Origin: Eubacteriales bacterium
GTDB lineage: Bacteria > Bacillota > Clostridia > Oscillospirales > CAG-272
Reading direction: 5' to 3'
NCBI GenBank assembly: GCA_045602385.1
Contig: JAZSBL010000025.1
Span: 384-64,383, forward strand
DNA: 64,000 nucleotides
Shown piece by piece: positions 34,824 to 35,880 of this stretch. Numbering within the stretch: the stretch's first letter is position 1; each line of letters begins with the position of its first letter. The position numbers and the translations under genes are program-made. Below the pieces are notes generated by a model that was given only the letters and a program-made list of their open reading frames with translations, made no database searches and was not told the origin of the DNA.

Positions 34824-35880
34824 CGTTTTTCTTTTTCCCTTTCAAGTAATAATTCACCGCCTTAAATAGCGGATGTATAATAATAGATATCAGCGCAGTT
34901 AGTACTACACATAAGATAGCATATAAATATTTGTTTTGTATATAGATTACTCTGCTGCGAAGCAGTTCAAATGATATTCCCTGTACAACATATATTTCAA
35001 AAAAGTATTTTCCTAAAACATCAAAAACCTTGAATTTAAGGGGTAGAATCATAAGGATAAGCAAAACAAACACAACAAAAACCGGCGCGGATATCATTTT
35101 GGTGATAACCTTTATAAAGCTCGGGAGGGGTAACATTGGTGCAGCAAACAATAGACAGAAACTAACAAAAGCTAAAAGCAACCACAGCACATATCTCTTG
35201 TGTAATACTTCTTCAATTTGTGGCTGATAAAACGACCATACTACTCCCAGCAACACCGCATAAATAGATTCATACCTGGTCGTGCCCGCGTTCATTAGTA
35301 TACAAAAGAAAACGTATGCCAACAAAAACAGAGCTAATACCAGTATCTTTAATGAATCCTTATTGATGTACTTAAAAATAACATATATCGCAAGATATAT
35401 CACGAGTATTGCCTGCAAATACCATCCGTTTGAAATAACGGTACCGCCCCACAAAAATGATAGCACAAAAAGCTTAACATCAAAGGGGTTGCCTATCACC
35501 AGCGTACCAAAACCAACATATATAGCAATAAGGATAATACAACTCACATAAAAGGGTAAAATGTGTTTTTTCGGGAAGCTCCTAATATATGCTTCCCCGC
35601 TCTTCTTATATGACGCCGCAATTCCGTATCCCGATAAGAAGAAAAACATTGCTACCGAAAGATATCCCATGGATTGAAATATTAGTCCAACATATTGGTT
35701 TTGTATAATGCTACTCCACTGATTCAAATGATGCAATACAATAAATATCGCAAAAACTCCTTTTACGCGCTTGGTATTATCTATCGATAAATATGTCCGT
35801 CTGTCTGTCTGTCTGTCTGTCTGTCTGTCTGTCTGTCTGTCTGTCTGTCTGTCAAGAGATTGTCCCCCTTTTTTCAGCAT
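34816..35880 (-). CDS. acyltransferase-3 family O-acyltransferase carrying an in-frame tetranucleotide repeat after the start codon
   Basis: MLKKGGQSL(DRQT)4DRRTYLSIDNTKRVKGVFAIFIVLHHL... with about 10 TM helices. No alternative start codon exists between the repeat and the conserved N-terminal helix. Confidence 0.8.
   Translation of the reverse strand: MLKKGGQSLDRQTDRQTDRQTDRQTDRRTYLSIDNTKRVKGVFAIFIVLHHLNQWSSIIQNQYVGLIFQSMGYLSVAMFFFLSGYGIAASYKKSGEAYIRSFPKKHILPFYVSCIILIAIYVGFGTLVIGNPFDVKLFVLSFLWGGTVISNGWYLQAILVIYLAIYVIFKYINKDSLKILVLALFLLAYVFFCILMNAGTTRYESIYAVLLGVVWSFYQPQIEEVLHKRYVLWLLLAFVSFCLLFAAPMLPLPSFIKVITKMISAPVFVVFVLLILMILPLKFKVFDVLGKYFFEIYVVQGISFELLRSRVIYIQNKYLYAILCVVLTALISIIIHPLFKAVNYYLKGKKKNDA
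35795..35854. repeat. tetranucleotide microsatellite (GTCT)13, which is (AGAC)13 on the coding strand
   Basis: Thirteen perfect units at 35799-35850, flanked by the near-units gtcc (35795-35798) and gtca (35851-35854). Confidence 0.98.

Follow-up and report, generated by a model that had tools for sequence, protein, structure and literature searches.

The acyltransferase gene and its repeat tract

The window analysed here, a stretch of 64,000 nucleotides of contig JAZSBL010000025.1 (NCBI GenBank assembly GCA_045602385.1) from a Eubacteriales bacterium, carries on its minus strand an acyltransferase-3 (AT3) gene with the perfect tetranucleotide tract (AGAC)13 among its first codons, which is the proposed site of slipped-strand switching of this gene. 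A regular-expression (regex) scan placed the tract at 35799-35850, equivalent to 13 GTCT units on the plus strand, and it is translated as (DRQT)4DR. Read on the minus strand, its context is ATGCTGAAAAAAGGGGGACAATCTCTTGAC-(AGAC)13-GGACATATTTATCGATAGATAATACCAAGCGCGTAAAAGGAG; the 52 nt are internal, uninterrupted and bordered on both sides by unique sequence. TRF also counted near-units (GGAC) at the flanks and made a slightly wider call (35794-35853, period 4, 15 copies, 96% matches). According to the regex scan, this is the only tetranucleotide repeat in the 64-kb window with at least three units, the next simple repeats being A8, T8 and (TC)5, and a chance origin of (AGAC)13 is therefore excluded. 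As expected of a contingency locus, the repeat is perfect, its unit length is not divisible by three, and it lies in the 5′ coding region, 30 nt past the ATG. The tract, its unit count and position, and the ATG coordinates had been reported in a first-pass annotation of this DNA, and all of them were correct when checked against the regex scan, the list of open reading frames (ORFs) and the sequence.

The ORF (34816-35880, minus strand) encodes 354 amino acids (aa) and is in the ON configuration at 13 units. Its N-terminus reads MLKKGGQSL(DRQT)4DRRTYLSIDNTKRVKGVFAIFIVLHH. The protein matches Pfam Acyl_transf_3 (PF01757; E=1.2e-23; 84.1 bits against a cut-off of 31) over residues 39-335, which correspond to profile positions 7-324 of 326, and this single domain, without a fused SGNH domain, makes it an AT3-only acyltransferase. 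H51, G41 and F79-F81-G84-Y85 are invariant across 29 aligned homologues; the protein has both the FFxxSG(Y/F) motif and the histidine of the first transmembrane helix (TM1), to which a catalytic role in AT3 enzymes is attributed in the literature (PMC9833829, PMC9558356). The first family-conserved segment, delimited by invariant alignment columns and the N-termini of homologues, runs from the K40-G41 codons to that of H51 (35728-35763, minus strand; KGVFAIFIVLHH). This is the "first conserved helix" of the first-pass annotation and carries the family-invariant histidine; translation must begin upstream of it.

The gene is embedded in a long minus-strand polysaccharide locus, with a CapF-like epimerase/reductase upstream and a Wzy_C protein nearby, and its acyl acceptor may be a surface polysaccharide. 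Directly upstream lies a second Acyl_transf_3 gene (35953-37215, minus strand; 420 aa), which has no repeat. On the downstream side follow a UDP-GlcNAc 2-epimerase gene (33648-34823, minus strand; ORF list and Pfam), whose ATG overlaps the acyltransferase stop by 8 nt, and then an NTP_transf_5 gene. An OFF phase, with translation ending about 1 kb upstream of the epimerase, might lower epimerase expression through lost coupling or polarity. The locus on contig L173, discussed below, also has two tandem AT3 genes, but there the tract is on the first one. The Clostridia setting assumed at first reading agrees with the aspartokinase of the window, which is 92% identical to a protein of Ruminococcaceae/Oscillospiraceae metagenome-assembled genomes. 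Elsewhere in the window, TRF detected nested tandem repeats of 9, 18, 27 and 174 nt with ACCGTCTTT-type units at 20351-20725, inside a 662-aa ORF (19043-21031, minus strand); they may encode a Gly/Asp/Lys-rich domain, a composition taken from the DNA unit rather than from the translation.

Reading frames and start codons

To follow the reading frames across the tract, the gene was rebuilt in silico with 8-19 repeat units. In these alleles, the enzyme body was in frame with the ATG (35878-35880, minus strand, as are all elements below) at n = 10, 13, 16 and 19 units (n = 1 mod 3), and with a TTG codon of the +1 frame (35853-35855) at n = 8, 11, 14 and 17 (n = 2 mod 3). At n = 9, 12, 15 and 18 (n = 0 mod 3), it was left without any in-frame start codon. 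Each of the two codons is preceded by a candidate ribosome-binding site: a Shine-Dalgarno-like GGAAGGG (35890-35896) 9 nt 5′ of the ATG, and the strong Shine-Dalgarno-like AAGGGGGA (35863-35870) 7 nt 5′ of the TTG. The CTTGAC(AGAC) junction that holds the TTG is also found in homologues, which repeat the arrangement of two start codons in two frames, and the TTG may serve as a start as well. The two non-coding frames are closed 16-22 nt past the tract by TAG (35783-35781) and TAA (35779-35777), which together span 35777-35783. Out-of-frame peptides were 24-35 aa long, those starting at the ATG measuring 31-35 aa at n = 12, 14 and 15. Across the simulated range, the unit number decided whether any start codon was in frame with the enzyme body, and reading in a wrong frame soon ran into a stop.

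The first-pass annotation had held that gain or loss of a single unit would switch the gene off. This agreed with the simulation for the loss of one unit, which is predicted to be OFF, but not for the gain of one, by which the TTG enters the frame. Instead of a simple on/off behaviour, three states are predicted, with OFF confined to n = 0 mod 3. The further statement that no ATG, GTG or TTG lies in frame between the tract and the conserved helix was confirmed, as none occurs before L49. Tract-less homologues begin 7-15 residues ahead of the KG motif. Given these homologue starts and the lack of an in-frame start before the invariant G41/H51, the tract cannot be bypassed. A non-canonical bypass start was considered and rejected: the in-frame ATA codons have no ribosome-binding site, and the AGGA-like sequences that follow the tracts have no in-frame start.

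Tract-bearing homologues

An exact look-up of the window acyltransferase and the adjacent epimerase in public collections returned no match, and family-alignment scans of genome and metagenome contigs, which yielded L021, L045, L093 and L100, gave only relatives of at most 43% identity among the matches listed. Homologues at 26-44% identity carry an AGAC tract at the same N-terminal site, directly before a YLS/ISS motif. The tract peptides include DRQTDG (P0006), SRQTDRQTE (P0007), TDRQTDRQTD (P0012), DRQTDRQTG (P0016), TDRQTDRQTE (P0026) and QTDRQTD (P0040). When 1.84 billion cluster representatives (50% clustering) were searched exhaustively with HMMER and the best 150 inspected, nine had an N-terminal DRQT-type tetrapeptide, always at the YLS/ISS site, where about 0.2 would be expected by chance according to our own estimate.

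The DNA behind such proteins confirmed tracts of widely differing length: 5 units in L009, 6 in L183, 7 in L182, 13-14 in L100, 3 plus an AGAT unit in L185, and 7 + AAAC + 3 in L011. L002 has a short interrupted tract (AGGC-AGAC-AGAC-GGAC). Two contigs begin inside the tract, so their counts are minimum values: at least 23 units in L093 (L093 1-92) and at least 13 in L021 (L021 1-53). Contig breaks at these two tracts are as expected if tract lengths are heterogeneous within a sample.

The same leader and tract also occur in a gene of another family. Contig L045 (Clostridiales bacterium AH.10_4, JAJPXB010000047.1) contains a GT8 glycosyltransferase gene (PF01501; 6365-7012) with an in-frame (AGAC)12, an N-terminus reading MDNLY(RQTD)4RAYITVLTNEQYLDGA, and an adjoining NTP_transf_5 gene similar to that of the window. 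The switch module is therefore not limited to acyltransferases. A search with (DRQT)12 for other families whose proteins are encoded across AGAC tracts turned up nothing but short low-complexity ORFs without annotation.

Length variation and out-of-frame copies

The best view of tract length came from the 90% cluster of P0016, in which four kinds of N-terminus were found. The first reads MNVQITDNL(DRQT)2G (337 aa), and the second has MNVQITDNL with (DRQT)1 (333 aa), i.e., three units fewer. The third, MCKSPTIL(TDRQ)2TG (337 aa), starts at another ATG, located 4 nt further downstream and in a different frame, and contains one additional unit; the fourth consists of 302-aa calls starting MAHHLYQ. 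Behind the 302-aa call stand nine contigs from nine metagenome samples (L173-L181) with 13, 10, 10, 10, 10, 4, 13, 10 and 10 units, all of them out of frame with both ATGs. They differ by 0-4 nt over 979 nt of flank and gene, and outside the tract L173 (13 units) is identical over this length to L175, L176 and L177 (10 units). Overall, the P0016 orthologue occurs with n = 2, 4, 5, 6, 10 and 13, of which 4, 10 and 13 were read from DNA and 2, 5 and 6 are implied by the protein variants. The tract is the fastest-changing site of this orthologue, and some of its length differences are not multiples of three units.

Similar variation was seen in other genes of the family. One gene is represented by both L093 and L100, with at least 23 units in the former and 14 in the latter. 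The proteins P0012 and P0055 have starts in different frames, while P0026 and P0060, and likewise P0004 and P0066, differ by three units; in the latter pair, the N-terminus M-TDRQ fits, at the protein level only, a start at the CTTGAC junction.

OFF alleles are present in public assemblies in L011 (NCBI GCA_965355545.1), whose out-of-frame gene was annotated as a 273-aa fragment, in L173-L181, and in L100, which carries a second lesion besides its tract state. As truncated gene calls were the route to the OFF contigs, no meaning attaches to the proportions of ON and OFF copies. Two further candidates for OFF alleles were rejected: the short gene call of P0003 is the choice of the gene caller, and the frameshift of P0032 (L012) is unrelated to the tract. 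More generally, annotation treats genes with such tracts as pseudogenes or truncated genes, and assemblies of these loci break at the repeat (L011, L021, L093, P0041).

A conserved promoter-like leader

Upstream of the tract, a consensus scan and comparison with homologues revealed a sigma-70-like element, TTGACA-17-GACAAT (35859-35887, minus strand), which overlaps the ATG and ends 8 nt before the first unit. Corresponding elements were found in L173 (TTGACA-17-GACAAT, 1359-1387, 6 nt to the tract), L100 (TTGACA-17-AACAAT, 2468-2496, 7 nt), L183 (TTGACA-17-AACGAT, 5 nt), L185 (TTGACC-18-GATAAT, 5 nt) and, ahead of the GT8 gene, L045 (TTGACA-17-GATAAT, 6345-6373, 6 nt). The element of L182 was foretold from the P0055 peptide ahead of the DNA and then found as TTTACA-17-GATAAT, 8 nt from the tract. 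The 5′-region alignment showed a constant geometry, with a spacer of 17-18 nt and a distance of 5-8 nt from the -10 element to the tract. Between loci, the spacers are unrelated in sequence, and the ATG may lie upstream of TTGACA, directly after it or 15 nt after it. In the scans of the window, L173, L100 and L045, this motif was either the top-ranking sigma-70-like site near the tract or the sole one, and at a threshold of at least 10 of 12 matches it was present in five of seven independent tract-bearing AT3 orthologues compared to 8 of 140 tract-less loci. An origin of the hexamers as decayed GACA units was rejected, as their spacing is out of register with the repeat. Searching the leader and tract against Rfam gave no family, and folding them as RNA gave no structure (z = 0.38).

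A second promoter-like match, TTGAAA-18-(TG)TATATT (35900-35929, minus strand), lies in the 72-nt gap upstream of the gene; this consensus match could supply an mRNA containing both the Shine-Dalgarno sequence and the ATG. The element next to the tract could serve as an internal promoter or as a decoy; it could help to open the repeat DNA and thereby promote slippage; or it could belong to a leader cassette that is inherited or exchanged as one unit. In the tract-less locus L095, TAGACA-17-GATAAT occupies the position of the motif in tract-bearing genes, about 89 nt 5′ of the codon equivalent to K40; this locus may have lost its repeat.

A probable frame-setting switch and its alternatives

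We conclude, with a probability of about 80%, that (AGAC)13 acts as a hypermutable switch that sets the reading frame of the AT3 gene. The slipped-strand frame switch of an O-acyltransferase put forward at first reading is thus supported by the design of the gene, by length variation in homologues and by out-of-frame assembled copies. In the proposed mechanism, slipped-strand mispairing at replication would add or remove 4-nt units. With n = 1 mod 3 (13 here), the ATG at 35880 would be in frame and yield the full 354-aa enzyme; with n = 2 mod 3, the TTG at 35855 and its own ribosome-binding site would yield a 347-aa enzyme, possibly at another level; and with n = 0 mod 3, only peptides of 24-35 aa would be made, and the gene would be OFF. 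As a result, cells of one clone of this Oscillospiraceae-like gut Clostridia bacterium, whose gene sits in a surface-polysaccharide locus, would differ stochastically and reversibly in whether their polysaccharide carries one particular acyl decoration, or at what level. The tract of this strain presumably slips at a high rate, and phage, antibody or another agent would select among the resulting states.

Several observations weigh against this conclusion. For this strain the case is comparative, as neither its acyltransferase nor the neighbouring epimerase is in the public collections and no close tract-bearing relative is found there. All data on length variation come from genes that are 26-44% identical to that of the window, and the OFF copies among them are subject to ascertainment bias. 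The use of the TTG as a start was deduced from sequence features, and the predicted transcription start of the promoter-like motif coincides with the first repeat unit, downstream of the ATG, which a purely translational switch does not explain. The sole close relative, P0001 (L001; 96% identical), has a different, tract-less leader (MMIQEKKAKDYLS), and its similarity to the window (35780-35960 compared) begins only at TATTTATC. A near-identical tract-less leader (ATGATGATTCAAGAGAAAAAAGCAAAAGAC) is shared by L001 (1-260) and L010 (560-760), of which the L010 gene body is only 55% identical. Since this leader is common to such divergent gene bodies, leaders and bodies seem to recombine independently, in a mosaic fashion.

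The leader is the starting point of the best-surviving alternative, namely that the tract acts mainly or additionally at the level of RNA or transcription. TTGACA-17-GACAAT would then be a genuine promoter with its start point at the first repeat unit, and the tract would form the initial transcribed region or 5′ leader, with a length that affects promoter escape, RNA stability or the expression of downstream genes, instead of or in addition to the reading frame. Its fixed geometry despite a varying spacer sequence and ATG position, its rank among promoter-like matches beside the tracts, its enrichment at tract-bearing loci and the successful prediction in L182 all speak for this. The evidence for a promoter nevertheless consists of consensus matches, and the motif could also be conserved because leaders are passed on or exchanged whole, as a cassette. 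An mRNA that begins at the tract would have no start codon before the essential TM1, and therefore no enzyme could be made from it. Moreover, natural alleles obey the frame logic, with full-length calls using starts in two frames depending on n, and the Rfam and folding results revealed no RNA element. We regard this explanation as unlikely.

The idea that the tract is a tolerated hydrophilic N-terminal tail undergoing neutral microsatellite drift, with out-of-frame copies as ordinary pseudogenes, appears slightly less probable still. A DRQT peptide lies ahead of TM1, where insertions are harmless, the closest relative does without the tract, and the short or interrupted tracts of L002 and L011 (with its AAAC unit) and the second lesion of L100 resemble decay. 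Drift does not account for the occurrence of the tract at exactly one site in nine of 150 divergent representatives and, in addition, in a GT8 gene, nor for the maintenance of perfect tracts of 10-23 units in several lineages. Starts in two frames and stops right after the tract recur in independent orthologues, and between otherwise identical 979-nt alleles the tract is the sole polymorphism. A repeat created or mis-sized by assembly or sequencing has a negligible chance of being the explanation: assemblers do struggle with such tracts, as the contig ends in L021 and L093 illustrate, but the tract studied here is internal, perfect and anchored in unique sequence, leaves the gene exactly in frame at 13 units, and has equivalents in many independent assemblies made with different assemblers.

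Relation to known systems

The switch proposed for the AT3 gene has its nearest counterpart, in the way it would work, in oafA of Haemophilus influenzae, an AT3-family lipooligosaccharide (LOS) O-acetyltransferase gene with a GCAA tract whose ON/OFF state follows the repeat number (PMC10505976, PMC9558356). For oafA, 14 or 17 repeats are given as ON and 16 or 8 as OFF (PMC10505976; PMC9558356 citing Fox et al. 2005), and its phase is described as altering a surface glycan epitope, serum resistance and antibody recognition (PMC10505976; PMC9558356). Both systems combine an AT3-family enzyme with a tetranucleotide tract in the gene. They differ in the repeat unit (GCAA/AGCA vs. AGAC), and oafA belongs to a Gram-negative pathogen and acts on LOS; the window gene adds a second start codon in another frame and the conserved promoter-like leader.

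GACA repeats are known from lgtC of H. influenzae (PMC10505976, Table 1). The unit is the same as that of the window tract, a likeness that spans two phyla. Like the tract-bearing gene of L045, lgtC encodes a GT8 enzyme. In the lic genes of H. influenzae (lic1A/lic2A), initiation codons stand in two frames, and expression is strong, weak or absent accordingly. This multi-start design resembles the ATG/TTG pair of the window and the two ATGs of the homologues, whose starts may be used differentially.

Among Firmicutes, icaC of Staphylococcus aureus, encoding a membrane protein of an exopolysaccharide operon, contains a TTTA repeat in which RecA-independent slippage reversibly switches poly-N-acetylglucosamine (PNAG) and which varies in clinical genomes (PMC4117637). 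It shares with the window gene tetranucleotide slippage in an exopolysaccharide gene of a Firmicute. Its short tract, of about 3-6 units, is located further into the gene than the first codons and truncates a 350-aa protein to 303 aa, with reversion reported as rare (PMC4117637); icaC has neither a dedicated leader nor starts in several frames. In Streptococcus pneumoniae, the (TA)n repeat of the capsule O-acetyltransferase gene wciZ separates acetylated 15B from non-acetylated 15C, with mixed populations (PMC5028725). Here, too, a Gram-positive O-acetyltransferase is switched by the length of a simple repeat, but by a dinucleotide near position 413 instead of a 5′ tetranucleotide tract. Invertible promoters of capsule loci in gut commensals and Clostridioides difficile fill the same ecological role of stochastic surface heterogeneity, though by site-specific recombination as opposed to repeat slippage; the window locus involves neither a recombinase nor inverted repeats. 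In a 2025 review of phase variation, Clostridia appear solely through the invertible elements of C. difficile (PMC11868660), and no report of repeat-mediated switching in gut Clostridia was found in the open-access full-text literature. The initial statement of few or no reports concerned polysaccharide modification in Clostridia, and for gut Clostridia it stands within that literature; in Firmicutes at large, icaC and wciZ are precedents. We see a familiar type of switch, here in a group from which none had been described, and the conserved leader could make it into something more.

Implications for gut Clostridia

Contingency loci based on repeat slippage are known mostly from mucosal pathogens with small genomes. 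Documented phase variation in gut commensals is mostly by DNA inversion, as in Bacteroides capsules and, within Clostridia, in C. difficile (PMC11868660). The locus described here and its relatives indicate that long tetranucleotide tracts switch decorations of surface polysaccharides in uncultured Clostridia, Oscillospiraceae-like and others, from the guts of humans and ruminants, with both ON and OFF alleles visible in public metagenomes. They also serve as a warning for annotation, as such genes are likely under-annotated.

We further offer the tentative and rather doubtful suggestion that gut Clostridia have a portable "switch leader" of ~60-110 nt, in which a TTGACA-17-xAxAAT element positioned to initiate transcription at the first repeat is combined with (AGAC)n and with start codons of two frames, and which has been put on AT3 and GT8 glycan-modifying genes in many lineages. 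If this were true, commensals would hold a family of tetranucleotide contingency loci comparable to that of Haemophilus, and the leader would possibly join transcriptional and translational control, or raise the slippage rate through promoter-driven strand opening. The combination of leader and (AGAC)n is a simple signature that can be mined across metagenomes and traced in longitudinal data. For the organisms themselves, the resulting heterogeneity of the cell surface at the strain level may affect phage adsorption, recognition by immunoglobulin A (IgA) and colonisation.

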